A model generated the notes under the pieces. That model was not told the DNA's origin, made no database searches, and worked only from the letters and a program-made list of their open reading frames with translations. The position numbers were made by a program, and so were the translations under genes. From Gekko japonicus (taxonomy: Eukaryota), in assembly GCF_001447785.1 (NCBI RefSeq), contig NW_015172565.1, positions 992,578-1,056,577 of the forward strand: a stretch of DNA of 64,000 nt, written 5' to 3'. Each line of letters opens with the position of its first letter. The first letter of the stretch is position 1. Positions 7,427 to 64,000 of the stretch are shown here, piece after piece.

Positions 7427-8299
7427 AGAGAAGGGACTGCATCATGTGACACAGAAAAAGCAGATGACCTGTACTGGCTCTTGACTTTGAACCAGTATGC
7501 AATGATGAAACATTAGAATAAGACACACAACCTGAGAATGCAGATTCTGAAGCAATCGTGCCAGAGATTCAGAGCAGTGCAGGTGTACTGGACAGCTCTG
7601 TAACAGCAGATGAAAATCCAAGACCATGCCTCTGATGCTCATTGTGACTGAACAAAGGCATTCTAACCTTCTGCTTGTCCTACTTCGCAAGGTCAGTGTT
7701 ACCATCTGAACTTTGTACTTCGGAGGAAATAGGATAGATGGCAACAACCAAAGCCAGTAGGTGGAAGAAGGCAGAACAAGAGGAGATTGATACTCTACAC
7801 AAAAATAAAATGTGGACCTTGACAAAGCTACCACTAGGAAAGAATCCTATTGGATGCAGGTGGGTGTTTAAGGTCAAAGAAGATGCTGACAGAAACGTGG
7901 AATGTTACAAAGCAAAATTAGTTGCTAAAGGCTTCTCACAAAAACATGGTACGGACTTTGATGAAGCCTTTGCACCAGTGGTGAAACATGGTACAATCAG
8001 ATTACTTTTGAGCATCGCAGGGTCCAAGAAGATGCATGTCAAACATCTAGATGTAAAGACAGCATTTCTTCATGGGGAGGTTCAAGAAGATCTGTACATG
8101 GAGCTGCCAGAAGGTTTTATAGACCCCAAACAACCAAATTTAGTCTGCAAACTGCAGACAGGGCTGTATGGACTAAAACAGGCAGCATGTGCCTGGAACA
8201 AAAAATTACATGCAGTGCTCATAGTGCAAGACTTCAAGCAAGGAGAAGCGGATTCATGTCTGTACACTAAACACAAAGATGGATATTGTACTTATATAC

Positions 8300-8940
8300 T
8301 GTCATGAGCTGGGCTGGGCCAGGAGGCAGAAGTCAGGTCCGGTCTGGGGGGGTCATAGCCAGAAGAGACAGAACGGGAGCCGAGTCAAGAGTCCAAGAGA
8401 ATATTCGTCTGAAGCAGGAGGTCAGAAGGCTGGAATCAAAATAGGAGCAAGATCTGGGAACAGGAACCGAGGGTGGGTGCAAGGTCAGCACGGATGCAAC
8501 TTGTTGCTTCCACAGAGAGCCCAACCCTGAGTGGGAGCTATACAGGCCTCTGGCAGTGCTTCCCTCAGTGATGGTGGCGCTCCTGTCAGTACTCAGGGCT
8601 CGGCACCCGCCTTCCCTACCAGAATGTGTCTCAGTGGCAGGTTGCTAAGCCCCTATGGAGCTGTTCCCTCAGTTGAGCCACCTGTGGAGGTGAATCAGGC
8701 GGGCTTTCTGTTTGCACATGTACCTTGTCGGCTCCTGCAGGGGGGATTTCTGTTTGCACCTGTACCTCGTCAGCTGCTGCAGGACCAGGTGCAGGGATTA
8801 CTGGCTCCGGCGCTAGTGGCGGCAAGCTGTCAACTCCCGAGGAGTCAGAGGAGCCAGCTTCCAGCTCTGGTGACACCAGCGACTCCGGCTGCACTGACAA
8901 CTTGGGCATGGGCCTGGCGCTGTCGCCACCGCCCATGACA
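8300..8940. mobile_element. Solo LTR (641 bp, family unassigned) inserted in the copia RT
   Basis: Termini TGTCATG...CATGACA; 5-bp TSD TATAC/TATTC; removing it restores copia TYILTYVDDL. Confidence 0.85.
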
Positions 8941-24873: not shown

Positions 24874-24934
24874 ATGCTCCCCAACTACACCATTCTTGTT
24901 ATGGTCAGTCTGCACTGGTTCATAACCTATAGAC
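24874..24934 (+). CDS. Gene 1 exon: candidate signal peptide MLPNYTILVMVSLHWFITYR
   Basis: ATG to GTAAGT donor is 61 nt, phase 1, the same length as gene 2 exon 1; hydrophobic core; TATAAAA at 24691. Confidence 0.65.
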
Positions 24935-33798: not shown

Positions 33799-33840
<42 letters not shown>

Positions 33841-36800
33841 TTTTCAGACCAATTTTTCAGTTTTTGTAGTGCTTCAAGCCTGGAAATGATAAAACGAGAC
33901 TTGAGAGATGCAGCTGTTGTTGCCACAAGAGTTGTACATTCGCTATTGCAGGTGCCTATTGGTTAGTGCCCATACTCGTGTCACCAATGATTACATCTAG
34001 CACCCTTTCTCAAAGCCCACGGTAGTTTTAAAACTTTCTAATTTGCAGGGAAGGGGAATGGGTATTGCAAAGGATGCACGCGTAACCAGACGTTCAAAAC
34101 AGTGATGTAACCCTTTAAAAAAGGGTGACAAAGAATTCAGAACTATCCATTCACCTCACCTGTATGCTTCCATTTCCAGTTTTCTTTTCTCCTGAAAAAC
34201 ATCCTTCCCACTGTCCACATGCCCATGTTGCGTGCCTGGGCTAAATGCTTTATGCTCTGCTGTAGAGAGTTTGAATGCATGTGGGAACCCCTCCCTCCCC
34301 CGCAATGATGCACACTGAGCAAATCTCTAGCAGACTGAGAAGTACATGGCATGTTGTGCCTTGAAAAGACATGCCATTTGATGAGCTTTAGTTAAACAAA
34401 AAGAATTAAAATAGGATAAGGCATGAATGCCTGAAGGTCCATGGAGGCAGGTCACTGGTCTAGTGACTACTGGTCTAGTCTACTAGTGACTCTTGGGCAC
34501 AGATCTTTCCCAGGGCTGCAACTGGAGACACTTTGGTTGAAGTTGTGATTGGAGACCCTGGCAGTTTCCACAAGAAGGCATGAAGATGTGCCCCTGCCAT
34601 GGCAGCAACAGCAACCAGGGTGGGAACAAGTGGGAATTCTCCTGCAAAGATCTGTCCCTACTGCGCTTGCTGCTGGCCCTCACATCTCACTCCTCCCCAT
34701 TTCTCCACCGTGTCTGCACAAAAGTACAGATTGTGACAGCAAGTTCCCCCACAGCACAGACACCCCCTTTTCTTTCCCTTTTCACTCTTCCTGCCAGGCC
34801 GTGCTGTAATGCTACAGCAAGGCCCAACTGGGGAAGGAAAAAAGCCCTTTAAAGGGGTTGTAAAGGGGGGAAGAAAATGTCATTTGGAAGATGCAGCTCA
34901 CTGCAGCTCACTCCCTACTGTGGCTGTGGGCTGAGTGAGTGGAGTGTTGCGTGCCTCCCCCCCACACACACACAGTTTCCCCTCTGAGTTGTAACAAAGT
35001 AGGTTTACTTTTAATCTAGTTCAAGGGATGGAAATACTTTAAGGCCTTCCTGCTGCCTATGTGGGGGAAAAGGCCCATGCAGAAGCAGCCCCTATAAGAC
35101 ATGTGCTCTGCTGTGGAACTATGGAGGTGATGCCGCACCTCCAGGCTGATGCTGGCCCATGGCTTTGGGGTGGAGGGTGGGGGTGGAGGCTATGTTACTA
35201 TGACCAGAAAACTTCCAGATTGTCCAGAGGAATTATGCATGGGCTTAAGTGCTGTCAAGTTTCAACTGACTTACGTTGACCCCAGAAAGGGTCTTTCAAT
35301 GTAAGTAAGAAGCAGAGGTGATTTGACATTGCCTTGCTCTGCAGAGCCTTCCTTGGTGGTCTCCCATTTTATTTATTTATTTATTTAATTTTCTACTTAT
35401 ATACCGCTCTGACCCCGAAGAGTCTCTGAGCGGTTTACACAGCTGTTTATCCCTAACTAGGGCCACATTATTTGTATGGGGGGTGATAACCTACCAGCAC
35501 CCCGGCCACGGGCTCAGTTGCTATTCACTTCCTGGCTCGGCTTGTTGTTCAGTCCCTGGCAGCTCTTCTAAGTAATGACCCTGCTTCTCTTTCGAGATCT
35601 GAGGCGACTGGGCTGTACCATGTCGCATTCCCTGCCTCAGAGGAGTGAAAGGATTATGCAAGAAGCAACAATACATTTCCACATGAAAATACTAAAAACT
35701 TGGACTGTTGGGCCATTTTAGTGGTCACACAGGACCTGTCCCCATGGAGAAAAGGATGAGGCAAACAAATGAATCATTATATTACATGTAGGAGCTGGTG
35801 TTGAATCATGACTGAAAGAATGAGCTACGACCCAGGAGATCCCCAGCTGACATCTTGCCTCTGCCACAGACTCACGAGATGGCCTTAGACCTGCCAGTCT
35901 TTCTTAGCCTAAGCACCCCATCTCCAATATGGGGATGAATATACTGGCCTTAATACATGTGAAGTGCTTTGAACATGGAAAAGGGCTTATGTATACATTA
36001 GTATATCAGCAAAGTTAGAAATCAGCATTGGAGAGCGCTCTAAGCTGGTAAAGTCACTATCATTAGATGATGTTGCTGAATGATCTCTGGTTAGTTTAGT
36101 GCTCTTTCAGGACAAAGCCCAATGTCTCATAGTTGTGTCAGCCCTCAACAATAAATTTGGCCCAATTTTTCTTTCTGACATAGCTTGCTTCTCATGGACG
36201 GCAAATGTAGTATTTATTTAAGGTTGTGAGAGAGTTAGAAGCCCCCTAGGTCCCACAGAAAGAGGAAGACAGAGTAGTCGATGCTAGTGATTGAGAGAGA
36301 ATTGTCTTTGTTCCTATACTATCCATGAATTCAATTTCAGTCTTCACTCTTACTCATTCGTCATGTAATGCTGCCATCTTGTGGCTTTCCTTTGTTACAT
36401 AGCCCCAGCAGTGCTCTGAACTCACCTACACCAAGAAAAGGATACGTTCAATTCCTTGAACATTCCCCAGCCCATCTTTACCTTTTGCAGAAAAGCAGAT
36501 TCTCCAACCCTCAATTTAAATTGCCTTTGCTATATAATGGATGGGTTTAAAATACCTGTTCTGTTCTTCAGAAAACCGAGGCAAATGTGCACTTCATTTT
36601 TTTTTTAATGTATCCTGCCTTTTTCCTCAGGGGAGACCCAAAGTGGCCTGTCCACTGTATCCTCCCAACAACCACCCTGTGAGGTAGGTTAGGCTGAGAG
36701 AGTGTAATGGATGCGAGGGCACCTGGCAAGCTTCAGGAGCAAGTGGGAAGTCGAACCCTGTTCTCCCAGCTTGACTCATTAGCCGCTATGCCATGCTGGT

Positions 36801-39800
36801 TCTCAAAGAACTAAATGAGGAAACATTTATGAAGTTGGGCTGTGTTTGTTATTAAGCTGATCGTTTTCCATCTCTGTGGAGTGAGGGTGTAGCCTTGCTC
36901 ATATTTATGACTTTTTGTAACAGATGAGATGTGACAGATGTGATCAATAAATACATGGACTGTCACAGAGTGTTGCAGGGGTTGATGAGGAAGAGTGGGA
37001 GTTCTGTTGCTCATTGCTAGCGATACCACAGTGACTATTCAGTGGCCCCATGACAGATGTGCTACCTCATTCAAAAGCCCTGGAGAAAACACGTTCAGTT
37101 GCTTTTTGGTTTGGTCAAAAGATGTCAGTGGAATGAAGTTTTCCCTATTTCCCTGCTTTTGTGTGCTTTTTAAATAACTGAACATCCAACCCAATTAGGA
37201 GTTGTGGAGACCTCAAAAGCTTGCGTGCTGTTTTGTGGTATTTTGGTTACCCATATTACATGGTTTTGTTTTTGTATTTCTAGAAAAGTCTTTATAAGTT
37301 ATAGCTGATGCATCTTGGACCACGAAAGTCAGTGGGACAGCACAAAACAAAAGGTTACATTGTTAGATAATAGAACAAAGTCTGAGACCAATGGCACCTT
37401 TAACAGTCCAGTGGCATCAGTATGCACGCGAAAACGTATATCTAGAACTAAATTCTGTTAGTCTTGAAGGTGCCACTGGATTCAAACTTTGTTCTATTAC
37501 TTCAGTCCAACATGGCTACCCACCTGAATCTATTGTTTGATCATGTTTAGGACTGGAGTTCCAGAATCTATCACACAAAAAATGTTGGTAGTTTTAAAAA
37601 TCTGAGTATTACTTTACCCATTCAGTGGCTCCTATGCTCTGCCATCATTTGAGTGTTGAAATAGAAACAGTCATGATTTTAACCTTATGGCAGTTTCTCA
37701 AACTTTTCTCTGGGCCCATTCAATATAGCTTTGGGCAATTTTCTAAAAACAAGCATCTCCGGATGGCTTCTCCTTGTTTTCTGCTGTTATTTGGGGCTGA
37801 TATTTCTGGACACATTGGGCTGAATCTTAAGTACCACCAGTGGAATGAAGGCCACAGAGCAGGAGCTCCCCACATTTCCTCTCTTGTTATAGCCCACTAA
37901 AGCCCTGAAATTCTGAAAACCCCCGGAACAGGGTAGAAGCACAGATTGGGCAGTCAGGGGTGTGAGGGGGCTATTAGTAACCATTGCCTCCCTCCACTGC
38001 TATAATGTAATCACTGCTACACCAGTGGAGTGGCACCTTAGGTACCAATGCACTTGGTATAGCATCAGCCTACATGGTGAGCATGCTGCAGTATTCCTTG
38101 CATGTAGATGCTTCTGAGATAAGCTTAGGGCACCGTGCAAAGACCTTTTACATTAAAAGAGGAGTGGGTCAGGACATTTCAACCTCTTCCTAAGCTACAC
38201 AGGACATTTCAACCTCTTCCTAAGCTACACAGTAGAGTAGAGCTTTTCGTGAGCTCCTGTCTTCCCTGTTCGGGTTGGGATGAGGCAATACTGTGGGTAG
38301 GGCTGCCAAGTGGGGGCGGGGGGCAGGTAAACCCCCGCTTTGGAGGCCTGATTTCCGCCGCCGCGGAATCGGGCCCCGGGGGGAACTCTGCCCCCGAAGC
38401 GCAGCGTGGCTGCGTCACCAGAGGTGACGCAACCACGTTGATCACGTTGGGGGCGTGACCCCGATCGTTGGAGGGAAAACTCTATCGTTTTCCCTCCGAT
38501 GATCAGGGCCACGCCCCCAACGTGATTGACGTTGCGCGTCACTTCCGGGACATGCTAGTGGCGCGCGTGCGCTTTGTGCGTGCGCATCAGAGGAGAGCTC
38601 CCGGAGCCCGGCGACGCTCCCCCGCCGGTAAGGATATTCGACTTGGCAACCCTAACTGTGGGAACAGTCAGTCCTCTAAATCAAATCTGGTTTAGTGTAC
38701 TGGGGGTGGGGGATTCAAACCACCCAGTTCATGGCTGATGAAAGAGAGGCTCCATCTGCCTCAGCAGTCACCTTCTCCCAGGAACTTCATTCCTGATTAT
38801 CCCAGAACCTGTAGCCTCAGCCCCGCCCCCTGCCCCACAGTTTGGTTCTAGGGTTTAAAGCCCCACATGGCTTGGGACCAGGATATCTGAAAGGTTGTCT
38901 TCTCCCATATGTTCCTGCCCAGGAATTAAGATCACAGGGAGAGGCCCTCCTGACTGTTTCATCAACCAAAGAAGCTTGTTTGGTGGGTACATGAGAGAGG
39001 GCCTTCTCAGTGGCAGCCCCGCAATTATGGAACAACCTTCCCAGAGAGCTGCACTTTGCCTAAGGTTCCCAGACCCCTAGCAGGGGTGGGGCATTCCCAA
39101 CCCTGGCCCCTTGATCAACTGGCCGGTGTGTGTGTGTGGATGGGGGCTTACCAGCAGCAAACACAGCGATGTCACTTCCAGCACACACCAGACGTGATGT
39201 CATGTAAACGCTGATGCAGGACACTCTGGTATTTGGGCAAAAACTCTATGGTAAAAATTGACTTCTACCATAGAATTTTTGTCCAAATATCATCGTGTCC
39301 CCACATTGCCATCAACGTGATGATGTCGCTTCTGGTGTGTGCTGGAAGTGATGTCGCTGAGTCACAGGCAATGCTGGCCTAGGCTTCTCTGGGCTGCAAG
39401 AAAGTCCTCACCCAACTGCCGTTGGTTGCCATGGGGTACCTGACAACCTGATCCCCTCACTTTTGATCCTTAGGAGGCAGCTGGAGACAGTTTTATTTAG
39501 GACAACGTTTGATTAATTTACTAGCAGTCCTAAACTGTGATTGTAAATTTTGCAGTTTTATGTTTTTTATATTGTGCATTTTATCTCATAAACCACCTGT
39601 AGCTCCATGTGGAAGAAAGACGCCTAATATTTAAAATAAAATTCTGGGGCTTCTGGATCCCATTTTGAATAATTTACCAGGGTTAGAAGCACAAAAATGT
39701 CACTTGTTTCTTTTTTGCAGTTCATGATGGAGGGCGGAATCCCGTCAGAGATAGTGAAACTGATTTAGGTAAGAGCTTAGCTATTGCAGTTTTTTTTTTT

Positions 39801-40855
39801 TAAATCTCTTCAGCAATGCCAGCCTCCTAATATCTTTGCCTTGTTTATAATGCTGGAATTGTGTTATCGGTGTGAGTCTTTTAAGATGCCATTTCTCTAA
39901 GTAAATATTGGAAGAACGCTGTGTCAGGGTTGTGCAGACTAGCACTCTTGTTGAAAAGTTCAGTGATGTCCATCTGAGGGCACCTTTCACTCCCTCCTAA
40001 TATGAGAGGCACTTCCCCATCATGAGACCCCTTGCCCCCATGATATGTGTATGAATACACTTGAGGGTAGTGCCAGTTGCATCTCTCAGGGTCCCTTTGA
40101 CTCTATCGATTCTTGGTTGGGACAAAGCACAGCCGTCAGTGAACATTCAGTATGGAGAAGTGTGGACATGCATAAGGAATGGGTAAACAGCTGTGTTTTA
40201 CTATATTAAACGCTGATTTCCTGGAAGGGCCCTAAGGATCTTCTCTCTTCTAGGTCTGCAGGGCAGAGTACTGAGTTTTCTGAATGGATCGAGGCCTAGC
40301 TCCGTGGTCATGTCCCCGCTGCAACCTTTGAATCTGATGGAATTCACACTCTGCATGAGAGTGGCTGCAGAATATCTGGGTGAACAGAAAGCCATTCTCT
40401 TCTCCTACCACTCTCCCAATGATGAACTGAGAATCTTGCGTGAATCAAGTGGTCATTTTGGGTTGCACATGGGGGGGCGGAGCGTGATGTTTGCTCTCCC
40501 TGACCTCAGCCCTTTTGGGAGTCATTTGTGTGTGACCTGGGAATCCACATTTGGTCTTGTGAACTTTTGGATAAATGGGAAGCGGAGTATCAGGAAGATA
40601 TATAATGTGGGACACATTCTTCAGCCAGGGGGTACTGTGATGCTTGGACAGGATCAGAGTGCACAAACCATGTCTGAGAAGCAGAATCGACGTTTTGTGG
40701 GAGAAATAACCGATCTCTACATGTGGGATTATGTACTGCAGCCTCAGGACATTGAGAATGTTTTCCAGAAGCATGACTTTCCCAGGGGAAACATCTTTGA
40801 CTGGAACATCTTATCATACAAGATAAAAGGGGACGTGAGGGTACTGCCTAAGTAA
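24874..40855 (+). CDS. Gene 1: secreted F-type lectin (fucolectin)-pentraxin fusion protein, 6 coding exons, predicted 400 aa
   Basis: Exons 24874-24934, 25513-25563, 26494-26779, 33164-33318, 39721-39768 and 40254-40855 all have GT-AG boundaries and compatible phases (1,1,2,1,1) and total 1203 nt with no internal stop. Confidence 0.82.
25513..25563 (+). CDS. Gene 1 exon: 51-nt linker (NDGNVAIADASIIPVG)
   Basis: TTTCCTTTCTAG acceptor, GAG|GTAAAT donor, open in phase 1-1. Confidence 0.65.
26494..26779 (+). CDS. Gene 1 exon: F-type lectin domain, N-terminal part
   Basis: PNIAVGKISSQSS...GVDG...CTLT...PWWMVDL...TNRGDCCESRIKGAEILIG; 286 nt. Confidence 0.95.
27466..31122. mobile_element. Non-autonomous DNA transposon with 5-bp TSD, split by an L2
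   Basis: TIRs CAGGGGTGGAAA / TTTCCACCCCTG; GAATG on both flanks; clustered (G)TCAGT motifs inside both ends. Confidence 0.8.
27916..30640 (-). mobile_element. L2-clade LINE, degenerate ORF2
   Basis: Endonuclease remnant (THQAGHTLDLIF), RT (QSGF, GVPQGAVLSPMLFNIY, YADDTQLY), LHWLP motif and (ATAA)n-type tail. Confidence 0.92.
31540..32106 (+). mobile_element. L2 3' fragment
   Basis: RAFSVAAPIWWNELP...KTELFRQAF, GTAAGCCGCCCTGAG motif and AAATAAAT tail. Confidence 0.9.
32480..33045. mobile_element. Penelope-like inverted terminal fragments interrupted by a tRNA-head SINE (~32625-32906, minus)
   Basis: GCAGCACCTTAGAGACCA / TGGTCTCTAAGGTGCTGC inverted arms; the SINE ends in TTAACCACTACACCAAACT (reverse-complemented A-box head). 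Confidence 0.7.
33164..33318 (+). CDS. Gene 1 exon: F-type lectin domain, C-terminal part
   Basis: CATISSMDLGETVTFNCAGMQGQYVTITIPGRRESLSLCEVQVLG; CAG acceptor, AG|GTGAG donor; phase 2-1. Confidence 0.95.
33801..33837. repeat. (CA)n microsatellite
   Basis: About 18 CA units. Confidence 0.98.
38170..38232. repeat. Perfect 30-bp tandem duplication
   Basis: CAGGACATTTCAACCTCTTCCTAAGCTACA twice. Confidence 0.95.
38298..38654. mobile_element. GC-rich hAT MITE (TAGGGTTGCC family)
   Basis: TIRs TAGGGCTGCCAAGT / ACTTGGCAACCCTA; 8-bp TSD ACTGTGGG. Confidence 0.93.
38850..39640 (+). mobile_element. L2 3' fragment interrupted by a MITE-like insert (~39061-39450)
   Basis: AAAGCCCCACATGGCTTGGGACCAGG...GCCTTCTCAGTGGCAGCCCC...TGGAAC; resumes at ~39455 and ends in an AATAAA-rich tail. 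Confidence 0.65.
39721..39768 (+). CDS. Gene 1 exon: 48-nt linker (VHDGGRNPVRDSETDL)
   Basis: TTTTTTGCAG acceptor, TAG|GTAAGA donor, open in phase 1-1. Confidence 0.8.
   Translation, partial: FMMEGGIPSEIVKLI
40254..40855 (+). CDS. Gene 1 terminal exon: CRP/SAP-like pentraxin domain
   Basis: EFTLCM, pentraxin signature HLCVTWES, FWING, LGQDQ, FVGEITDLYMWDYVL, GNIFDW; whole domain in one exon, as in short pentraxins. Confidence 0.96.
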
Positions 40856-41041
40856 GAACGGCCGGGGGGGGGGGGAGATACGAGCATTCTTAGTGCCTTT
40901 GTGCAGCCAGCAGGCAAGGCTGCTATTTGTTGGCCTCCTAAGAAGTTCAAGGCACAGCTAGTGAACGACTTGCACTTATTATGTGATTATTATTCATATT
41001 GCACCATGGTATATCCTTGAATTAACAGTTTGAAAATATGA

Positions 41042-51075: not shown

Positions 51076-51197
51076 TGGACTTTTCCTCCATTCTGTTAAC
51101 GGCAAATACAAACATTTGGTTTACCAAAGAACTCCAAAGGGCAGTTTATGTCCTGATGTCCGATTGGAAGAGATCAAAAACCAAAGAGATTATATAA
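51076..51197 (+). promoter_or_regulatory. Candidate promoter of gene 2 with HNF4-like, forkhead-like and TATA motifs
   Basis: TGGACTTT 51076, GCAAATACAAACA 51102-51114, CAAAGGGCA ~51135, TATATAA 51191-51197. Confidence 0.45.
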
Positions 51198-51319
51198 CCT
51201 CATCAGTACTCTCCAGCTAAAGAACACTTTCCTCTGTTTCCTTCTTCTGCTGAGCTTTAGATTCTTTTCACAAATCCTGCAAAAAGGACATGCCTCATTT
51301 AAAGAGAACCCCCACAAAC

Positions 51320-51380
51320 ATGAGATGGTGTCTCCCTCTGCTGCTTCTGGCCATCCTGCCTGAACTGCTCGCCGAGAGAG
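51320..51380 (+). CDS. Gene 2 exon 1: signal peptide MRWCLPLLLLAILPELLAER
   Basis: AACATG context, Leu-rich core, GAG|GTAAG donor, 61 nt, phase 1. Confidence 0.85.
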
Positions 51381-54300
51381 GTAAGCAGTCCCGTAGCCAG
51401 GATTTTGTGGCTTGCGGGGCAATTTTTTCTCCTGGTGGGGCTGCCATTATTTGCCATAATGAAGGGAGGTGGCACTAGGGTTGCCAAGTGGTCTTACCTT
51501 GCCCGGCGGGGGAGCCTTGCTGGGCTCCGGGAGCTCCTCGTTGGCGCATGCGCGCAAAGCGCATGCACACCACCAACACGTCACAGGAAGTGACATGCTA
51601 CGTTGTTCACGTTGGGGGTGTGGCCCAGATCGTCGGGGGGGGAACCATATGGTTCCCCCCCAACATCTGGGCCACGCCCCCAACATGAGCAACGTGGCTG
51701 ACGCAGCTTCGGGGGGCGGAGTTCCCCCCGGGGCCTGATTCCGCCACGGTGGAAATCGGGCCTCCGAAGTGGGGGTTTCCCCGCCCCCCGGGCCCACTTG
51801 GCAGCCCTAGGTGGCACGCGCCCCTCTCCCTCCCCTCCTGCAAGATTTAATGGGCCTTTCAGCTGACTGGTAGGCCATGTGCTCCCCACCAATCAGCTGA
51901 AGGGCTCTTTAAGTCTTGCAGGAGGGGATGGAGAGGGGTGTGCACCCCCCCCCCCGTTTCGTCTCAAAAGCATTTAAAGGATCCCTTTAAATGATTTTGG
52001 GAAGAAGGGGAGGCTTTAAGAAGCAGGGAGCCTTTAAGGAAGGGGGCAGAGCCCCCAATAGCCCCACCACCATAGCTACGGGCCAGGAGGTCAGTGTGAC
52101 TCTTATTTCCCCCTATTCTTCTTCTTCTTCCCCTATATTAACTTAGCTGAGAGAGATTCTTCTTTAGTAATTCCATCAAGCTAAAGGTGCATTTTCATTA
52201 ATTCCTGAATTGCTTTGTATACACACTTTGTATGCACCCCTCCCTTTCAGAATAAGGGGTAGCTTAAAACAACTTTAAAATACTCTACTACTGTTGGGAA
52301 TGTACTATAAGTCAGTGGCCATCATATTGTTGGGAAGCCTTTTTCTTGAGAACAAACTAAGGGTCATGCAATTTTAGGGCAAATCCTCAATCTACCTGTT
52401 TCTTATTAAACATAAGGGAATGTTTCTAACTTATAAATTCTACAAATGAGGGACCTGCAAGGACTTGCGGGGGGCATCTAATTCCTCCTCCCTCACAATA
52501 TCCTCTTTCCATTTCATGAAAGCCCCCATTATGTCTCCCCTTTTCCTGCTTCCTTCTCTCCTTTCCATCCTCTAGCCAACCTACCTTTATCTGCCCCGAC
52601 TTCAGCCTTCTTTCCTTCCCTTCCCCAGCAACATCTCCCCAGGAAACCTATGGCCCAGATCTGCAGTTCCAACTGTATCAGGGCCATTTGCACTGGGGGA
52701 GACCTGCAAGGACTTTTGGGGGGCACCTCACTTTTTCCTGGATGCTCTTTCCACANNNNNNNNNNNNNNNNNNNNNNNNNNNNNNNNNNNNNNNNNTTTC
52801 CCTACTTTCTTCTCTTTCACATCTACTTACCAATCTGTTATCCACCCACCCATGGGGCCCCAGGACAGCTTACATCATTCACCTCTCCTTTATTGTATCC
52901 TCACAACAGCTTGGTGAGGTAGGTTAGGTTGAGAATGTATAATTGGCCCAAGGTCACCCACAGAGTTTCCACAGCAGAGTGAGGATTTGAGGTCATAGTT
53001 TACTATGTTGCACTGGCTTTTGTGGGGTAGCTGCCATTGAACAGTAATGAGCAGCCAGGAATGGGTGAATCAAGCATTTTGGGTGGTATCAAGCTCCCTG
53101 GTGGTTAGGGTTCCCAAGTCCCCTCATTGCTCTGGCGGGGGGATTTGGGGGGCATTCCAGGGGTAGGCGGGGATGCCCCCAAGCCATGGCCACCTACAGC
53201 CACTCCTCTCCCTTCGCTTCTGCAGAGATTTAAAAGTCTTGAGCTGATCGGCGGGGAGCACCTGGCCTGTTGATCAGCTGGGGTGCCNNNNNNNNNNNNN
53301 NNNNNCAGGAAGGGAGAGGAGCTGGCAACCCTATTGGTGGTTGCTGCCAGGCCTCTCTTAAAGGCCAAAACAACCCTTCCCCCTCACCCCAATTCCCACT
53401 TTACGGTTCAGTGGGTGGGTGGGCTCCACGGGGGGATAGTAAGGACACCTGCACCCCCTGCCCAAATCCTTGATTACCAGCTCCAGAGGGGCAGGGAGGA
53501 ATCCTGCACCCTCCCTTGCCTGATTCCCTCCTTACTGGCTCAGCAGGACTTGCAGGGGGGAATCTCATGCCACCCCATTGCCTAACCTGTTGTGGCTCTG
53601 GGTCTTACCACCCACCATTAAGCTCAGCAGTGGTGCCTGGAAGCCTCTCCCACTGTTCTCTGCCATGACAGCCAGGCCCAGAGCCTTGCCCAGCATCTTC
53701 TGCAGTGGCAGCCAGGCCCAGAGCTTCATTCCCCACTTTTTTGATGGACCCATGCCCAGCACGACTCCCTGGCCTGCATCTCTGCTGCTGGCGGGCCTGG
53801 TGTGGGTCCTAGGCTGTGTCACCAAAGCCCAGTGTGGCTCCCGGGGTTCAGCAATGGTGGTATGCCCAGCACGGCTTCCAGGCTCCGCCAGCAGTGGCAT
53901 GCTCACCACGGCTCCCAGGCTGTGCAGCCTCTGCCGGGCCCAGTAGAGCCCTGGGCTGTGCCACCACTGGGCCCAGTGCAGTTCCCAGGCTGTGCGACCA
54001 CTTCTGTAAGTACAGATACTGCTACTTTACTTTTCAGGGGATTTAAACCCCCCTATATATATTTTTTAAATTTGCAGATTTTTCTGCAAACCTGCGGAGT
54101 GCCCCAGGTTTGAAGAAAGATCTATTTAGCATCCACATGGCCCTGATCCACATATTTAGCTATCTGTAGATGGGGCCCACAGTGGCTAATAGTGTATAGA
54201 CAAGTGGGGACCTACAAGAAACATGTAGGGTAGCTACCCCATTTCCTCCACCTTTGCTTCTCCCCCTCTCCCCCACCTCTCTCACCCCCTTTCTGCCTTC

Positions 54301-57300
54301 TGCCACCCCTTTTCTTACTCTCTCTCTCCTCCATGCATGTCACTTCCTCTCTTTATGCCTCCTCCTCATTCTCTTTTTCTGCCTCCCTACCTCATCTCTC
54401 TTCCTCTCTTTCTGTCCCTCACCCCATCACTCTCTCTTTCTGCCCCATCACTCTCCCAGCCTCCTGCCTGCTTCCTCTCTCCTACATAGGGACAGCAGTG
54501 GTGGTGGTGCTCCCAACCACCCACCTGCTTCCTTCTCTTCCCCACAGCAGCACTGGCAGTGGCAGCTCTCCAAGAATCAAAACCGATCTCCCAGCTACAG
54601 AGATCAATTCTGCTTAGGGTTGCCATCTCCAGATTGGGAAATTCCTGGAGATTTGGGGGTGGAGCCTTGGGACAGTGAGTCTTGGGGAGAGAAGCAACCT
54701 CAGCAGGGTATAATGCTCTGGAATCTACCCTCCATAGCAGCCATTTTCTCCAGGGTAGCTGATCTCTGTCACTTGTACAACAGTTGTAATTCTGGGTGAT
54801 CTCCAGCCCTCACCTGGAAGTTGGCAATAGTAGTTCTCATGGAGGAAACAGCTGGTTTGGAGGGCAAAGTCTATGACATTATACCAATATGATGTCTCTC
54901 CCCTCCCCAAACTGCACTGTCTCCAGGCTCCAGCCCTCAAATATCCAGTAATTTCCCAACATGGAGTTGGCAACCCTATCTCCTTCCCACCCAACAGACA
55001 ATCTACTTTTATCTGCCCCTCTGTCTTAAGCTTTCCAACTCCACAGTGGGAACCAAAGTAGGTTACATTATTCTCTCCTCCTTTTTATCTGCATAACCTG
55101 GTGAGGTAGGTTAGGCTGAAAGTGTGTGACTGGTCCAAAATCACACAGTCCCACAGCAAGATGGGGATCTGAACCTGGGTCTTGCAGACTCTACTCTGGA
55201 GCTCTAACTGCTGCACCACGCTGGCTTTCATAGGGTGGCTGCTGTTAAACAGTTATGCAGTTCCCGACAGCTGTGGAGCTGGTAGCAAGGACTGCTAAGT
55301 ATGCTTTGCTGATTACTCCAGTTGCCATCTGCTCAGGATTTGAAGCTGTATCCATATCAGGTTGTGCTTCTGCAACTGCACTTACAATGGTCTCTGTTGT
55401 GTCTTCCATAACTCCTCTTTGCAAGCTAGTTTAAACTTACTCAAATTGCAACACTGAAGCTTCAGTGACTTGCCGCCAAAATTACTGTTCTTGCAATTCC
55501 AAACTCCGCCACTAGATGTCTTTACTGTGCTCTCTTGCTACTTGTTTGCAATAAGAACATAAGAGATGCCAATGTTGGATCAGGCCAAAGGCCCATCCAG
55601 TCCAACACTCTGTATCACACAGTGGCCAGAAATACCAGTGCCATCAGGAGGTCCACCAGTGGGGCCAGGACATTAGAAGCCCTCCCACTGTTGACCCCCC
55701 CAAGCACCAAGATGACAGAGCATCACTTGCCCCAGAGTCCCTATCTATACCTTGTGTAGGGTTGCCAAATCAGTCTTTGCCGGGAGCGGGGGGCTCCCGG
55801 CCGGTGTCGGGTGAATGCGTGCGCGCGCCGCGTGCGCGTCACCCGGAAGTGACGTGGGCACGCTGGGGGTGGGGCCACGGCCATACACGGCCACTGTGTG
55901 TATGTCTCACTTAATTTTTTACACTACAGTATTCTCCATTAGAATTCCTACAACAAATGTTACATTTCAAACTGCACATCATCAGTATTATAACTGGATT
56001 TCCAGAACTTAGATACCATAGCAAAGCACAGGTATCAGGTTAGTGTATAAATAAAGGAAGGGGGTATTTGGTTTTAAACCAAATAGATTGTCGTTTAACC
56101 ATCTTTGTAGAATGATCTCTTGTGGAAGCTTTGCACTACATCATAGCTCATTCATAACCAGAGGTCTTTTGGGGCCGGAGCGCTGCTTTGGCAGCCCAGG
56201 AACTGGTGCAAATGGCGGTGGTGGCAAGCCCCGCCCCCAGCTCTCCGGCGCTGAAAGCGCTGTTAATGGGGGACGCCTGGAGAGCACCGCTTCCGTGTCT
56301 CCCGGGCCCGTGCAGAAGCACTGCAGCTCGGGGGAGGCCCAGAGAGCATCGCCCCTGGGTCCCCTGGGCCCGCGCAGAAGCACTGCGCCCGGGGGACACA
56401 CGGAGAGCGCGGCCAGGGGATGCATGGAGAGTGTCACCGTCAGGTTCCCCGAGTCCGCACAGAAGCACTGTGGCTCGGGGGAGGCCCGGAGAGCCCCACC
56501 CCTGGGTCCCCCGGGCCCGCGCAGAAATGCTGTGGCTTGGGGGAGGCCCGGACAGCCCCGCTGCCGGCTTCCCTGGCCCCCGCCAAAGCGGTAAGTAAGG
56601 GATCCGCGGGGCTGGGGTGGCGGGGGCTTGATAGGGAGTGGTGGGAGAGCCTCCCTCCCTCCATCTCTTTACCATCTTTCCCTCCTTTCCTTTTCTTTCC
56701 CTCCTTTTGTTTCTCTCTTTTCCTTCTCTTTCTCTTTCCTGCCTTCTTCTCTTCTCTTTTTCCCTCCTTCTTCCATTCCCTCTCTTTCTTTCCCTCCTTC
56801 TTATCCCCTTTCCTTTCTTCTTTCCTTCCTTCTTTCCTTCTCTCTACTCTCTCTCTTTCCTCCTTCTGTGGCCCAACTCTAGTGAGAAAACCCCTTCTAT
56901 CCCATCTTTCCTTCTCTCTACTCTCTCTCTTTCCTTCCCTCTTTGCTCCTTCTGTGGCCCAACTCTTCCCCCCCCCCGCAGGCCAGCTGGGGAAAGGAAG
57001 GGGAGGCTTTTGAAGATGCCTTCCCCCTTTTGCTTCCCCTTCTGGCATCACTTCCAATGATGTCAGGGGGCATGGCATATGCTAATAGCCTACTAGCTCA
57101 TTAGCATACCATATGCTAATGATCTCCTGCAGCTCTTTTTCTAGGAAAAGACCCCTGTGAATCATAACCAAGTAAATAAATAATTATGTGCTCACCACCA
57201 CTGTACTCATTTGCGCCCCCCCCCCCCAAATAACTTTCTGGCTATGGGCAATCATCAGCTAATCATCTGAACATGGGTGTAACTTCTGTAGTGCACTGCT

Positions 57301-60300
57301 GTGCTTCTAGCACTACCCAGTTGGCAGGTGCAACACAAACCACTTACCATATCTTGCCGCTTTTTGCCAGTGGGAACAAGGCCTCCCAGGAGACTGATGG
57401 ATTTCCTGAATCAAACTGGAAACCAAGGGGTGTTTTGTCGCTCTTGTATTTCTGTCCTTAAGCATGTTCTCGCAATGTGCATTCCGACCCTGCCCTGAAA
57501 CACAAAGCTGCCTCTCATTAGTAGGAGCCAAGTCAGTAGGCATGGGCATCGGCACAGTCACTTTCTGAGCGAAACAGATGACTGGATCCATCCAACGCAT
57601 TATTCTGGAATCCTTTACTATGATTCCACTTGCATCCCTGCAGTCCCCCCCCCCCCATATGTTTATCCCAGCTGTGATGTACATACTCAGAAAGTATCTA
57701 TTTTGTATGAATGATCCAATTTATGAACACATGAAGCTGCCTTAGACTGAATCAGATCCCCCTTGGGACAACAAAGGCAGTATGGTCTACTCAGAGTGGC
57801 AGCAGCTCTCCAGGGTCTCAGGCCTTTCATATCGCCTCCTACCTGATCCTTTTAAATGGAGGTGTTGGGGATTGAACCTGGGACTTTCTGTATGCCAAGC
57901 AGATGCCCTGCCAGTGCACCACAGCCCCTCCACTTCACTGGTGGAATGAAACCAATGCCAGCAATCAATGCATTTGTTATAAAAGAAGTATTCTGCATTG
58001 TTAAAAAGACACTCAATATTTAGAAAGGTGTCTTGTTGTTGTTGTTGTTGATGATAAGGGCTTCAGCACAGCTATAGTGAGAGAGAAACTTTTGTTTTCT
58101 TTGTTGCAGCTCTCAATGTGGCCATCCGAGGAAATGCTTTACAATCCAGCACTTTTAGCCCACTAGGAATGGCTAGCAATGCTATTGATGGGATTACCAC
58201 AGGTAATTTTTTAGATGGGTCATGCACCCACACAGAACAAGAAACCCATCCATGGTGGATAGTGGACTTGAAGTCAGAATATCAAGTAACTCGTGTAAGC
58301 ATCAGTAACCGGGAAGACTGCTGTGCGCATCGGCTCAATGGGGCTGAAATCCGGATTGGGAACTCTCCAGAGGCAGGGGGCACCATGAATCCCAGGTACT
58401 GAAGCAGTTTGATATTTTCTAGGACTTTGCAGGATTAGAGTACAAGAAAGACAAAGAAATGGAAATGACGTGGACAGATTCCTAACTGTTTTAGTTTAGG
58501 ACAATGTTTTATTCCATGTTCAGAATGTTTGTCATAGATTTGGGGATCTTTTAGGTAAGAAATGAGCGTGAGAACCACATCATTTTCAAATTACCATGCA
58601 TGTAATGTTTATTGTGGAAGAATAAATGACACATGAGAATAACAGGAGGACACCCATCCATATACACATGGAAATCATCATGCTCACCTACTCATGTTGG
58701 GGTTAGCCAGATTTCTGCATGAGGTCCTGAAAAAGGCAGCCTCTTTCCTTGTAGTCTCTGAAGACTAAAGGTACTCTGTAGAAAGTTCATTTGAAAGAAG
58801 TATTTTAATAGAAAGAAAATCAATTTGAAGAAAATCTTATGATGTACAGGATTATTCCATATGGGGCAGAGAAAGTCCCAGAGAAATAGACATGGGATAT
58901 CCAGTTGGAGCTGGAGACATGGGAGGTGACTGTTGGTACACCAGGTAGAATCCTCCATTTTGCTTCCTATTCCATGAGCCTATATAGGGTTTCAAGGTAT
59001 TTGTCTGCCTTAGAGAACTTCCCCTTTTTCAACTGGATTCAGCCATATTACCTGGGCTTACCAAATCATGCTGGCCCCTGACCTGCTCCTGCTTTTGAAC
59101 TTCTGGTCTGCTTGGTCTTCCATTATAACCTGAAGAACTCTTTTGCTTTTGGCCATCTGGCCAGTGTCTTCTATCTTTTTAACTGGCACATTCTTTCTGT
59201 TATGTCTTTTTTGCACTTGATTTTTCCCTCGTGCTGTTTATTGTTACCCATTGTCTTCCAGGGATTTTACTCCATTTGTTATCACACTATTTGTAATCTC
59301 CCAGGAATTTCTGCCTTTCAACCTTATCTCAGTTTCATTCTTCACACATGCTTCCTTCTGTTCCAATATCTCTAATATATACCTTGAATAAATTTCAAAC
59401 TGTATATATTGATTAAATAACAACAACAATTAATCAATTAACACGTTGTTACCAGTTACATGCTCATGTGGTTTACCACCCCCCCCCCCCAGATGTACTG
59501 TGATCGAATCCTTGGGTCTTGGGGAAACCCAGAGTTTTTACTGTGAAAATATGCAAGGAAAGTATGTCACTGTTAACCAACCAAATGGAGGAATCCTCAC
59601 ACTTTGTGAAGTCCAAGTGTTTGGTGAGAAGGTAACTCCCACCGGTAAGTAAAATGTTTCCTAGATGGCTTCTATTTTGATGTGCAGAGAGAGACCGAAA
59701 GACAGAGCATATATCAACATCACAGGCGTAATCTGAGTCATTCTGTTACCACACAGCATCATGGGAAATACAGTGTTGTAAGAGGGCAGGGGCTGAGAAG
59801 TTATCATATAGAATGCTTAGCTGAGGGGTTTGATTTCCAAGAGATGGACTTCAGAGAGGGTGGGAACCCTACATCCAATCTGTGGACAGTCACAGTCATG
59901 TGACATTTGAAGAAAAAATAGACTAGTAGTCTGATTACAGTAAAGAATGTTCTTCTGGTTTAGAGATGTTGGGTGAACATGTGGATGACTCAGCTGGTGT
60001 ACTGCTTGCTTGAAAAGGTGGTCATGCTCATGGAGAGCAGAATGTGTATGTTTTGCAGAGGAGGAGAGGCAGGAGAGTTGCTGTGTTCACATTTGCATCT
60101 GCATGAGAAATTCTGCTGTATGCTGCCGATGCATAACTCAACCATTCACATGTAAAACTTCACTGGTAAAGTGCAGTGCAGCAAAAGAAGAGAACCTGAG
60201 TGAAGGAGGAAGCTTAGATTTAGAAATTCAGTATCTATTTCTAGGGTTTTACTTACCGTTTGCCTATGTATTTAGTTCCTTTGCTTTTAAATTTTGACTA

Positions 60301-62861
60301 ATCATAACTGTACCCAATTAAAGAATTTTAAAAGAAACAATAACTATTGTAGTGCCTTCTGAACAGCATCTGCAAGCATACACTTTGCCTCTGGGCCTAG
60401 CAAGGCAGGTGGGCTGGCTTCCTGTCATGGAGGGAAGGAATCCTTCCATCCAGCCTCTCTTGTCCCAGTCTGCAGGTGAGCTGCGTATTGTACGCATGGA
60501 TGGAATATCATAGCCTCCCCACCACAGCCCTCTGCCTGCCTGGCTGTGTGTTCAAGCAAGGTCTTTGTCCTTGCCTAGCAGGCAGAGCTCCAGAGACCAA
60601 AACAGCTATGTGTGATTTGTATTCATATAAAATAAGAAAGTCTTCCCAAAGCTAGTGAGATAGGCCTAAGATTGGCAGAAACTAGTGATTCTCAGGTTTA
60701 CCCACTCAGTTTGAACCACAGTGGTTCAAATAGTTTCTTCTCTACCATGGTACCTGCTTAATGTAAAGATTGGCTGACTATTCTATTTGGTGACATCTTT
60801 CTAAGGCACACATCTGCTGAATCACTTTGTCCTCTTGCTGTCCCTCCCACTATCTGGGAAACTGAAGCCAGACAATGAGGTACCAGAATAACAACCACAT
60901 CAGAAGGTGTCAGATTCAGAGAATTTACTATATTTACAAACGGGACCTGGGCTAGGTCAGATCTTGATTAGAAAATTCTGACTGCTTATCCCTAGTAAAC
61001 AATAAAAAAGGAAAATAATTGCATAACAACATCTAATAAGCAAAATAGGGGCAAGGCTTTGAAACAAATATTTTATTTAACTGATGAAGAGAGAAGAGGA
61101 GATTGGATTTATACCCCGCCCTTCACTACCCAAAGGAGTCTCAGAGTGGCTCACAATCTTCTCTCCCTTCCCCTCCCCACAACTGACCCCCTGTCATGTA
61201 GGTGGGACTCTTTCAAGGACTGCTCTTGAGAGAACAGCTCTGAAAGAACTTGTGACTGACCCAAGGTCACACCAGCAGCTGCATGTGGAGAAGTGGGGTA
61301 TCAAACCTGGTTCTCCCAAATTAGAGTCTGTACTCCTAACCACTACACCAAACTGGCTCTCAGTGGTTCCCAGGGGGCTTACTTTAACACAACTCCAAAG
61401 CTTGTATCTAAACTGTGCCTAATGATGTATACCACATACTGAGGGAGTCTTAACTAAGTCTTTTTGTGTCTTTTTATAACTTCCATGCCAGATGAGCCAA
61501 GATCGGAAGAGACTCAGCCTTCCAGAACACTAGCAAGTGGAGAGGAAGTTGAGACCTCTGGTAACCAACCCATTGTATCCTACTGGACATGAGAAAAATA
61601 TCACACGTGATGTAGTCTTGTTGACAAACATAATAGTGAAATGATGGGAACTTTAGTTGTTGTAGATTTTCTGGGCTGTATAGCCATACAGCCTGGAAAA
61701 TCTACAACAGCTAATGAATTCCAGCCGTGAAAGCCTTTGACAACGTATGGGAACTTTGTTCACATGTCTCCTCCCAAGTCCAGCTGGGCCCAAAGAGTAT
61801 AGTGGGAGACCATTACATTTTTACTATCCACTTATGGAACAAATGAAGTTGTATAATGCGGAGTCAAAACATTAGTCCCTCTAGTCCAGCACTCTCTGTG
61901 CTGACTGGCAGCAGCTCCCCCGCCTCAAGCTAGCCAACATCTTTCTCAGCCCTGTTACACGAGAGCCTTCAAGGGAGACTGCCAGGGACTGAACCCAGAG
62001 CTCTTTGCCCTCTAAGCATGTGGTCTGTCCTGGATGTATGACCTCACTCCTTTAACGGTCAAAGTCAGAGTCTACCACCAGTGTACCTGCAATGAATTGC
62101 TAATTATCCATTCGAATAATTAATCCAGATCCACTGTGTGAGCTCTCTTCATAATGCCAACAGGCTTTAGTTTTTGGTGATTTAAACATAAAGGGAGTGT
62201 TTGTGTGTGTTCTTTTTTATAGAACCCAATGTTGCTCTTGAAGGAAAGGCATTCCAATCCAGCACCTACAATGCAATTGGAGAGCCTGAGAATGCTGTTG
62301 ATGGATCTTCATCTGCTGACTATTTGTTGGGGCACTGCACCCACACAGAGCTTGAAATTAATCCGTGGTGGACAGTGGACTTGGGAGCAGAGTTCCGAGT
62401 GCACAAAGTCAGTGTCCTCAATCGAGGAGACTGCTGTGCAGATCGGATAAACGGGGCTGAAATCCGAATTGGGAACTCGCCGGAAAAAGGAGGAATTACA
62501 AACCCAAGGTTTGTACACCGCAATGTTTTTGTGTGTGTGTGTCATAGGGTTACTGTGCAGAACAACGGAAGTGGAATGAAGCAGCAAGGTTCCTAACAGT
62601 TTGATGCGTAAAATTTTTCAAAACAATAATTTGCCATTCTCTGAGAAGAATTTTTTATTTTATTTTTTGTGCTTTATCACAAATACCACCTAATAGGACT
62701 TTGTTTCTGTTCAAGGTGTGCTATAATCCACTTTCTGGGTCTAGGAGAAACAGCCATTTTTGACTGTGGAGAAGCACAGGGGCAGTATGTAACTGTTACT
62801 ATCCCAGGCATACAATGTCTTACACTCTGTGAAGTCCAGGTGTTTGGAGTGAAGGCCTGTG
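51320..62861 (+). CDS. Gene 2: secreted tandem F-type lectin (at least 2 domains), 3' end beyond the window
   Basis: Exons 51320-51380, 58110-58395, 59493-59644, 61492-61560, 62223-62508 and 62716-62861 splice in frame; the last ends at a phase-1 GTAAGT donor with no stop. Confidence 0.85.
51386..52086. mobile_element. hAT-type element containing a nested MITE (51476-51809)
   Basis: Outer ends CAGTCCCGTAGC / GCTACGGGCCAG with TSD GAGGTAAG/GAGGTCAG; inner TAGGGTTGCCAAGT...ACTTGGCAGCCCTA with TSD GGTGGCAC. Confidence 0.8.
52756..52796. other. Assembly gap (41 N); a second gap lies at 53288-53305
   Basis: N runs. Confidence 1.
53106..53333. mobile_element. hAT MITE (TAGGGTT family)
   Basis: TAGGGTTCCCA / TGGCAACCCTA; TSD CTGGTGGT/TTGGTGGT. 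Confidence 0.82.
56159..57157. mobile_element. ~1-kb GC-rich hAT-type element with internal direct repeats and a polypyrimidine tract
   Basis: Ends CAGAGGTCTTTT / AAAAGACCCCTG; shares the ATGCTAATGA subterminal block with 24016, 45335 and 1240-1324; TSD imperfect. Confidence 0.7.
57722..57935 (-). mobile_element. tRNA-derived SINE
   Basis: The reverse complement carries a B box (GGTTCAATCCCC) and ends in the AGGCAGCTTCATGTGTTCAT tail. Confidence 0.75.
58110..58395 (+). CDS. Gene 2: F-type domain 1, N-terminal exon
   Basis: LNVAIRGNALQSS...NAIDG...CTHT...PWWIVDL...SNREDCCAHRLNGAEIRIG; 286 nt. Confidence 0.96.
59493..59644 (+). CDS. Gene 2: F-type domain 1, C-terminal exon
   Basis: CTVIESLGLGETQSFYCENMQGKYVTVNQPNGGILTLCEVQVFG; GTAAGT donor. 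Confidence 0.95.
61090..61360 (-). mobile_element. tRNA-head SINE (same family as 32625-32906 and 44464-44740)
   Basis: GAGATTGGATTTATACCCCGCCC...TAACCACTACACCAAACTGGCT. Confidence 0.85.
61492..61560 (+). CDS. Gene 2: 69-nt acidic/Ser-Thr linker exon (DEPRSEETQPSRTLASGEEVETS)
   Basis: Long pyrimidine tract plus CCAG acceptor, CTG|GTAACC donor, open in phase 1-1. Confidence 0.7.
61655..61746. mobile_element. 92-bp Penelope-type fold-back insertion
   Basis: Inverted arms around 61682-61685, CCGTGAAAGCCTTTGACAA 3' end, 11-bp TSD ATGGGAACTTT (61644-61654, 61747-61757). Confidence 0.8.
62223..62508 (+). CDS. Gene 2: F-type domain 2, N-terminal exon
   Basis: PNVALEGKAFQSS...NAVDG...CTHT...PWWTVDL...LNRGDCCADRINGAEIRIG; 286 nt. 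Confidence 0.96.
62716..62861 (+). CDS. Gene 2: F-type domain 2, C-terminal exon
   Basis: CAIIHFLGLGETAIFDCGEAQGQYVTVTIPGIQCLTLCEVQVFG; GTAAGT donor. Confidence 0.95.
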
Positions 62862-64000
62862 GTAAGTAAAAGATTTCCCAATCGTCTGATGTTGGGTGCG
62901 TAGTTAGCTTTTGCTGAAATGCCTTGCTAGAGGTTTTCTGTAATCTATAGGTATCTTCTAGTCTCTGGCACAGATTGTTTCATTTTAATTAGTTTTTCTA
63001 TAGTTTGGATATTTATCATTACAATATTTATCATTACCTCACTATGTCATTTAATCTATATTTTACTCCATGGCTTGCAGGAGTTTTGCATATTACTAAC
63101 AGGACAGGGACCTTACTTTATTTTTAAAATTGCACAGGTAACCCAGGGCAGAAGGGCAAACATGATGTGACATCCCAGCAGTTCTGCCAGTGGGAGGACC
63201 TGGAAGTAGCAGTCCTTTTTTTAGTTTTATGGTATAAACAAAGTGTTTCTTTTAGTCTAAACATTGGTTTGAGAATCAATAGTGAAAGGCAAATAATAGA
63301 AATTCATTTGTATTCTTTATTCACAAAATGAGCATGGAAGCTTATTCACACCACTGTGCTTACCTAGTGCTGCCTTATCATCTAAACATCCAGATTCCCT
63401 ATTTTAACATATTGGGGGGGGGGGCGTGCTGGTCAGTACAATGCTTTGACACCTGTCTGTGTCATACAGTTAATAGAGTGACTTTGCCTTTAGATAGCAA
63501 CAGCTGTTTCTTGGTTTATACTATCCAGCTCTGTTACCAGACAGTCATAATACAAGCCATCAGTGCATTTGGCATAAATTCTGTGATGCAAGAAAGGCAT
63601 TCCCATTATTCAGGTGTATCATGTGTGGATATGTGGAGGGCTGTACAGTGTTGCATCACTGTTGCATGGAGTCAGTGGGTATAACCAGACAGCACGATAG
63701 TGCAAGTTGTGCTGTGCCAAACAACACCTTTCTCTTGGTGCAGCTGACTTCCTATCTGATGTTAGTAAACTTGTGCTCTTGGAGTCTGGCTGGGAGAAAA
63801 GCCTTGGGAGGAATGGAGTGTTGAAGGGAAAAGCATGAGTGGTGGCAACATTTAGTTCCACTCTCCCACCTGTCCTTCTGCGTGAAGCTGTTCTGATATC
63901 CGTTGGGCAGCACATCATATTCTGCTGCTATCACACCTAGGTGGACATTAACAGTGCAGTCCTAAGAAGAGTTACCTTTAGAAGTCCATGGACTTAGAAG

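Follow-up and report, generated by a model that had tools for sequence, protein, structure and literature searches.

An intact four-domain F-type lectin gene beside a lectin-pentraxin gene in Gekko japonicus

What kind of lectin is encoded next to a gene that joins an altered F-type lectin domain (FTLD) to a pentraxin is the question raised by a locus of the gecko Gekko japonicus (NCBI RefSeq assembly GCF_001447785.1). The window analyzed here is a stretch of 64,000 nucleotides, positions 992578-1056577 of contig NW_015172565.1 (G000:C12855 in our numbering), read on the forward strand. A preliminary description made from its letters had proposed a local lectin cluster with divided roles, in which a canonical multivalent fucose binder stands beside a fusion protein with altered sites. 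We refer to the four-FTLD lectin gene starting in exon 51102-51380 as gene B and to the upstream FTLD-pentraxin gene as gene A; positions are those of the window unless assigned to the contig. Gene B is an intact, spliced and expressed gene, and its product is quite likely a secreted four-site binder of terminal L-fucose that would cross-link or mark microbes in innate immunity, as judged from its sequence and from characterized relatives.

Structure and expression of the tandem lectin gene

Within the window, six GT-AG exons on the plus strand form an open frame of 333 codons encoding a leader, FTLD1, an acidic linker and FTLD2. This order is the one given in the preliminary description, and the start of the gene, 10.5 kb past the stop codon of gene A (40855) on the same strand, agrees with the spacing of about 10 kb given there. 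The downstream exons were located by searching the gecko's own genome, which completed a gene of 11 GT-AG exons and 657 codons without a stop, in the order leader, FTLD1, acidic linker, FTLD2, basic linker, FTLD3, FTLD4 and short tail (Table 1), with a predicted product of ~69 kDa, tail not counted. The 3' extension, proposed earlier as a check of the FTLD number and of the end of the gene, gives a total of four domains instead of two, and neither a pentraxin nor a transmembrane exon was found at the end; short tails likewise end the gene models of relatives. An ending of gene B in a pentraxin or membrane exon was rejected, as the 70 kb downstream hold no pentraxin match (a tblastn search of 144 kb with four proteins containing a pentraxin gave matches only from 40250, upstream of gene B), and a simple hydropathy scan with both candidate tails found no membrane anchor, the top 19-residue value past residue 25 being 1.42, inside FTLD2.

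The first exon had been described as 51320-51380, beginning at the ATG at 51320. A second in-frame ATG, at 51290, is part of the transcript, which begins by 51102, and extends the frame by 10 residues. The Heteronotia orthologue has matching residues, and 51290 is therefore probably the true start. The leader contains a hydrophobic window of 1.68 in the hydropathy scan and would act as a signal peptide. The acidic linker has seven Asp/Glu versus two Lys/Arg among its 23 residues and is 82% identical to the Heteronotia linker.

Four runs were aligned to 51100-63200, namely X15 (raw RNA reads), X1 and X10 (contigs, their kind not on record, whose depths do not measure expression level) and X14. 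All five in-window junctions of gene B are found at the predicted GT-AG sites in X15 (1-3 reads each), X1 and X10. A transcript contig of X1 covers 51102-51378, and the joint from exon 1 to 58108 occurs in X15, X1 and X10. Past the window, the joint from FTLD2 to the basic linker is seen in X1, X10 and X5, that from this linker to the first letters of FTLD3 in X1, X10 and X9, and one X1 contig of 2203 letters runs 985 letters past 62861, compared with 972 predicted through FTLD4. Because the frame is open through 11 exons and the junctions are seen in RNA, the downstream stops, frameshifts or lack of a transcript that could have overturned the preliminary gene model do not apply, and the gene stands.

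Table 1. Exons and related features of the two lectin genes (window positions, or contig positions where marked).
Feature	Position	Strand	Evidence
Gene B exon 1: 5' untranslated region (from at least 51102) and signal-peptide-like leader	51102..51380	+	Transcript contig piece, ATG context, hydropathy
Gene B FTLD1 first exon (AIDG, CTHT, NREDCCAHR)	58110..58395	+	GT-AG, RNA joints, Pfam PF22633 E 1.4e-17, PF00754 E 4.3e-9
Gene B FTLD1 second exon	59493..59644	+	GT-AG, RNA joints
Gene B acidic linker exon, 23 codons	61492..61560	+	RNA joints both sides in runs X15, X1, X10
Gene B FTLD2 first exon (AVDG, CTHT, NRGDCCADR)	62223..62508	+	GT-AG, RNA joints, Pfam
Gene B FTLD2 second exon, with both extra Cys codons (62816-62818, 62858-62860)	62716..62861	+	
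Gene B intron 6, extends past window end	62862..64000	+	
Gene B basic linker exon, 31 codons	contig 1056967-1057059	+	Own-genome search; RNA joints seen
Gene B FTLD3 first exon (AIDD, CTHT, NRGDCCAER)	contig 1059639-1059924	+	RNA joint into its start
Gene B FTLD3 second exon	contig 1062586-1062740	+	Own-genome search
Gene B FTLD4 first exon (AIDG, CTHT, NREDCCAWR)	contig 1066028-1066313	+	Own-genome search
Gene B FTLD4 second exon	contig 1066543-1066694	+	Own-genome search
Gene B candidate tail exon, 12 codons	from contig 1068406	+	
Gene B candidate tail exon, 21 codons	from contig 1071186	+	AATAAA at 1071360
Gene A, 6 exons	24874-24934, 25513-25563, 26494-26779, 33164-33318, 39721-39768, 40254-40855	+	Open GT-AG frame; known from genome sequence

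Sugar-binding sites and proposed function

The motif H-x26-R-x-D-C-C-x-x-R, which had been described for FTLD1 and FTLD2, was confirmed in both and recurs in FTLD3 and FTLD4. Its strict form (H-x26-R-x-D-C-C-x-x-R/K) has four matches in 134 kb (the window and 70 kb downstream), all of them in gene B, compared with a mean of 0 in 30 base shuffles. The fucose motif His...R-x-D-x4-R/K with the spacing of the eel agglutinin AAA (His52, Arg79, Arg86) is likewise present in 4/4 domains, with 26 residues from His to Arg; the family review prints X24, and its residue numbers give 26 (PMC5712786). The first exons of all four domains exceed the Pfam cut-offs for PF22633 and PF00754, and every domain is encoded by an exon pair of 286 and 146-155 bases in phases 1-2-1, the gene structure of the family. 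The six family cysteines, including the vicinal Cys-Cys, stand at the expected positions in all four domains and would form three disulfides in each.

The calcium motif hhDG is present in FTLD1 and FTLD2, as previously described, and in three of the four domains overall. The Asn, Asp, Cys and Glu ligands (equivalents of Asn35, Asp38, Cys146 and Glu147) are kept in all four; the Ser49 equivalent is S, H, Q and S in FTLD1-4, and the residue following DG in FTLD1 is Ile, where the review consensus has a small hydrophilic residue. Substitutions in the cation motif and the calcium ligands are frequent across F-type lectins (PMC5712786). The FTLD3 calcium motif (L001:3062-3347) differs between geckos, being AIDD in gene B, LEDF in Paroedura and AIDG in Heteronotia and Gekko kuhli.

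The fold was predicted, with an alignment of 37 sequences, for Heteronotia P0127, an isoform of the 87%-identical orthologue, rather than for gene B's own spliced protein; the model has four confident domains (mean predicted local distance difference test score 85.4) and linkers of low confidence. Its top fold matches are the striped bass lectin 3CQO (E 5.7e-35) and the eel agglutinin 1K12, with a template modeling score of 0.85 to the target, which places the orthologue in the F-type jelly-roll fold. The sequence of orthologue P0021 matches the same two entries at E 2.4e-81 and 9e-35, respectively.

By comparison with the eel and striped bass structures, each domain would grip the axial 4-OH of L-fucose via His, Arg and Arg, with the vicinal disulfide also taking part in fucose binding and a calcium ion stabilizing the fold. 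The tandem sites are predicted to bind fucosylated glycans at several points at once, which would provide avidity and cell cross-linking, and the linkers would space domains 1, 2 and 3 apart, with domains 3 and 4 closely joined. The product may act as an agglutinin or opsonin, cross-linking microbes or tagging them for phagocytes, as fish F-type lectins do (PMC12221842).

Several observations weigh against this reading. Run X14 contains 0/5 gene B junctions with exon depth near zero, and exon depth in X15 is 1-3. The RNA joints were traced up to the start of FTLD3, the FTLD3-FTLD4 and tail junctions lying outside the aligned stretch. FTLD3 has AIDD at the hhDG position, and the FTLD2 His at the Ser49 position falls outside the usual substitutes given in the review (PMC5712786). 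Since F-type lectins also act in fertilization and adhesion (PMC5712786, PMC12221842), the immune role is proposed by analogy only, and gene B could instead have a role within the animal, its product recognizing self glycans in reproduction, skin or mucus and not microbes. These family functions favor such a role, as does the very uneven exon cover of two raw-read runs from one species. We nevertheless regard it as unlikely, given that the characterized fish F-type lectins are agglutinins or opsonins of liver, gill, gut or plasma (PMC12221842), that gene B appears to descend from a pentraxin-fusion gene, and that its triads, in contrast to the variable oyster bindins, are conserved among lizards.

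The additional cysteines of the second domain

FTLD2 does contain the two cysteines beyond the family six that were noticed at first, in the sequences IQCL (codon 62816-62818) and KAC (codon 62858-62860). The suggestion that they form an added or interchain disulfide fared poorly. A homologue search with the FTLD2 first exon as query gave 473 matches among 548 candidates, and the counts given here refer to the 120 matches listed. Cysteine at the IQCL position occurs in 1/544 domain ends of these homologues (a frog) and in 0/14 lizard proteins, and cysteine anywhere in the eight residues past the last strand in 10/544, distributed over nine proteins. None of the 14 lizard proteins has either extra Cys in its FTLD2 counterpart, not even those of two geckos with 84-87% identity, and at the two positions Tyr and Ser are found in other geckos. 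Relative to them, KAC results from a local 6-base shortening and a Ser-type codon change, and run X9, from a second species, has a Ser codon and six more bases at this place.

Contigs of X1 and X10, which come from two studies, span the IQCL codon ~43 bases from the piece end with no listed difference; therefore this Cys is probably real in Gekko japonicus. In contrast, the KAC Cys is not confirmed in RNA: X1 and X10 each have one unlisted difference within ~30 bases of an FTLD2 second-exon end, a difference that could lie in the KAC codon or beside it. The protein searches gave no independent Gekko japonicus protein for this codon, only a Gekko kuhli piece spanning domains 3-4. In the alignment, the first extra Cys corresponds to eel Ser142, within the loop that leads into the last beta-strand; the second comes 14 residues later, past this strand, at the bottom of the barrel where the termini leave. 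Because the two flank the last strand from opposite ends, an intradomain bond between them appears implausible.

The idea of functional cysteines, which would make covalent subunit links or an added disulfide and hence a higher-valency lectin in this gecko lineage, draws on the presence of both codons in the DNA, on the undisturbed IQCL codon of two studies, on the surface or linker positions that both would take in a secreted protein, and on the disulfide-linked dimers of Japanese eel fucolectin (PMC12221842). Their absence from 14/14 lizard proteins, the rarity of the first, the unfavorable geometry and the uncertain KAC codon make it quite unlikely. Interchain bonds are possible, yet the poor conservation argues against a role for them, and a conserved extra disulfide in FTLD2 is unlikely. 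As a conserved feature the extra cysteines were rejected, being missing in the lizard orthologues and found in a single domain end at the IQCL position. Most likely they are recent surface substitutions without a conserved role.

The start of the FTLD2 second exon (62716-62745) has several further substitutions unseen in other geckos (IIHF versus TINS), and selection on this exon may be relaxed in the lineage.

Relatives, the neighboring fusion gene and their shared history

Gene B is a typical representative of an established lectin family that is common to many lizards and already predicted in lizard annotations. Among the 120 matches listed are 14 lizard-type proteins, 13 of them from 11 genera, mostly four-domain and annotated as uncharacterized; no snake proteins are among these 120 of 473 matches, and we make no claim of loss in snakes. 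The gene B model shares 87% identity with Heteronotia P0021 and 65-71% with lizards other than geckos, and its domains are 57-68% identical to one another, each being 87-96% identical to the same-position gecko domain. Sequence similarity and tree placement both mark the source as a gecko. The orthologues (Heteronotia LOC132576284, Pogona LOC110076029, Rhineura LOC133390557, Podarcis LOC114605560 and others) share with gene B the leader, four FTLDs and the same two linkers; unlike gene B, they lack both extra cysteines, and some (Anolis, Elgaria, Tiliqua) have five or six domains. Domain number varies by recent internal duplication (P0003, P0006, P0008, P0039): Elgaria domain 2 is tripled, Anolis domain 3 doubled, and a Podarcis paralogue consists of four domain-1 copies.

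Among known F-type lectins, the best sequence and fold match is striped bass MsaFBP32/MsFTL1 (3CQO), which likewise has tandem FTLDs with the His/Arg/Arg triad and, like gene B, a pair of exons for each domain with phase-1 introns on either side (PMC12221842). MsaFBP32 has two domains, one of them without the vicinal Cys-Cys (PMC5712786), whereas gene B has four, all with it, and two extra linker exons. Eel AAA (1K12) has the same triad spacing, and its Cys82-Cys83, Cys50-Cys146 and Cys108-Cys124 have equivalents in gene B; however, AAA is a single-domain lectin, while gene B would gain valency from tandem repeats rather than from oligomers only, and its complementarity-determining region 1 is shorter in the alignment. 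Lectins of teleosts and Xenopus with four FTLDs and no accessory domain (PMC5712786, PMC12221842) match gene B in domain count, but the lizard domains group in a clade of their own, next to domain 1 of the turtle pentraxin fusion, and for this reason the lizard four-fold array likely arose separately. The domains of Xenopus PXN1 (five FTLDs and a pentraxin) and of the turtle 'pentraxin fusion protein-like' (three FTLDs and a pentraxin) are homologous to those of gene B (49-55% identity). The fusions and the gecko locus alike combine intact and His-less sites, but in the gecko locus the intact sites and the pentraxin lie in two separate adjoining genes; a C-terminal pentraxin in the same chain, the mark of the PXN1 type, is found in gene A and not in gene B.

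The two reviews mention reptile F-type lectins only through a database survey (PMC5712786, PMC12221842), reportedly that of Bishnoi et al. 2015, whose supplements may already list these genes. In a literature search that mostly did not cover subscription journals, we found no study dedicated to a lizard F-type lectin.

Elsewhere in the genome there are eight distant FTLD first exons (L011-L018; contigs C8525, C6263, C14095, C5754 and C46205) of 42-45% identity, most with CTHT and RQDCCGER and one with DAG for DCC. Because two of them have a stop right after the domain, these exons suggest a separate family of short fucolectins.

Gene A (24874..40855) encodes, in 401 codons, a leader, one FTLD without the His (CTLT...NRGDCCESR) and a pentraxin domain (Pfam Pentaxin E 8.3e-39), and has its own stop and AATAAA; the fusion neighbor with an altered site is therefore as first described. 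Leu replaces the His and both Arg are kept, and this Leu is common to Paroedura, Heteronotia and Hemicordylus. Domain trees of 81 and 91 rows group gene B domains 1-4 by position across geckos, lacertids, iguanians, an anguimorph and a cordylid, and place them together as sister to domain 1 of the turtle fusion (support 99/92 and 100/95 in one tree, 96 and 95 in the other). The gene A domain stands apart, nearest to turtle domain 2, which is also His-less, and forcing the domains of both genes into one clade was rejected by the approximately unbiased test (p-AU 0.0105, 57 rows). The observations suggest, with moderate support, that both genes derive from a turtle-like ancestor with three FTLDs and a pentraxin by tandem duplication and reciprocal domain loss: one copy would have kept the His-less domain 2 and the pentraxin (gene A), and the other domain 1, multiplied four-fold in the lizard ancestor (gene B). 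Counting against this history, the trees have few columns (143) and sample no tuatara, crocodilian, bird or snake, the placement of the gene A domain has a Shimodaira-Hasegawa-like approximate likelihood ratio of only 89, and the rejected grouping was chosen after the trees were seen, under a simpler model and with thin sampling. The domain-cutting pattern skipped some domains (e.g. one of Xenopus), and the numbers given to amphibian domains in the trees therefore do not reflect their actual positions. The division of roles proposed for the pair fits the sequences and domain trees, with an intact expressed lectin beside a His-less fusion, and gains an evolutionary basis, though not functional proof, from the reciprocal domain loss; the split in function itself is predicted from sequence.

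The two genes could alternatively form one complex transcription unit, in which an upstream promoter and the His-less half-domain are spliced to the FTLD1 second exon, giving four-domain lectins with the first site altered. Three of five Heteronotia RefSeq isoforms (X1, X3 and X4; P0126, P0128 and P0129) begin with the gene A leader, and at least P0126 and P0129 join the gene A FTLD first exon (26494-26779 in the window) to the gene B FTLD1 second exon (59493-59644); both donors are phase 2 in the window, and the splice would keep the frame. Paroedura (P0013) and Hemicordylus (P0014) models merge the genes otherwise, as FTLD-pentraxin-FTLD x4 of 1064-1106 residues. However, the last 17 bases of the two donor exons are the same in the window, and therefore short reads can be misplaced and a false intron created; the merges of the three relatives differ, that of Paroedura passing through gene B 5' untranslated sequence; and gene A has its own end and gene B its own first exon, seen in runs X15, X1 and X10. 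We consider such a unit very doubtful, and equally improbable its evolutionary extension, in which an ancestral lectin-pentraxin gene split in lizards and splicing still exchanges half-domain exons between the two resulting genes, with promoter choice switching the first sugar site on or off. The gene A stop (40853-40855) is overlapped by a donor-like GTAAGA (40852-40857).

That gene B is a pseudogene or mis-assembled repeat, as might be suggested by a draft assembly with 191,500 contigs, by runs of N within intron 1 and by the unusual FTLD2 second exon, is refuted by the 11 open exons, by spliced joints in runs of several studies and by domains far closer to their gecko counterparts than to one another, and has practically no probability left.

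Upstream of the lectin genes lie a LINE-type (long interspersed nuclear element) endonuclease and reverse transcriptase frame of 712 codons (3884-6022, minus strand) and a reverse transcriptase fragment (Pfam RVT_2; 7738-8307, plus strand). The introns of both lectin genes contain, judged by eye, apparent LINE-like retroelement remains (L001:3420-5570, L002:355-900 and window 28200-30640).

Gene B encodes a known kind of protein, of little surprise to a specialist, yet it is of use for comparative immunology and may yield a multivalent fucose probe. It provides a verified model of a lizard-wide four-site lectin, together with a testable history in which sugar binding and pentraxin were parted into adjoining genes.

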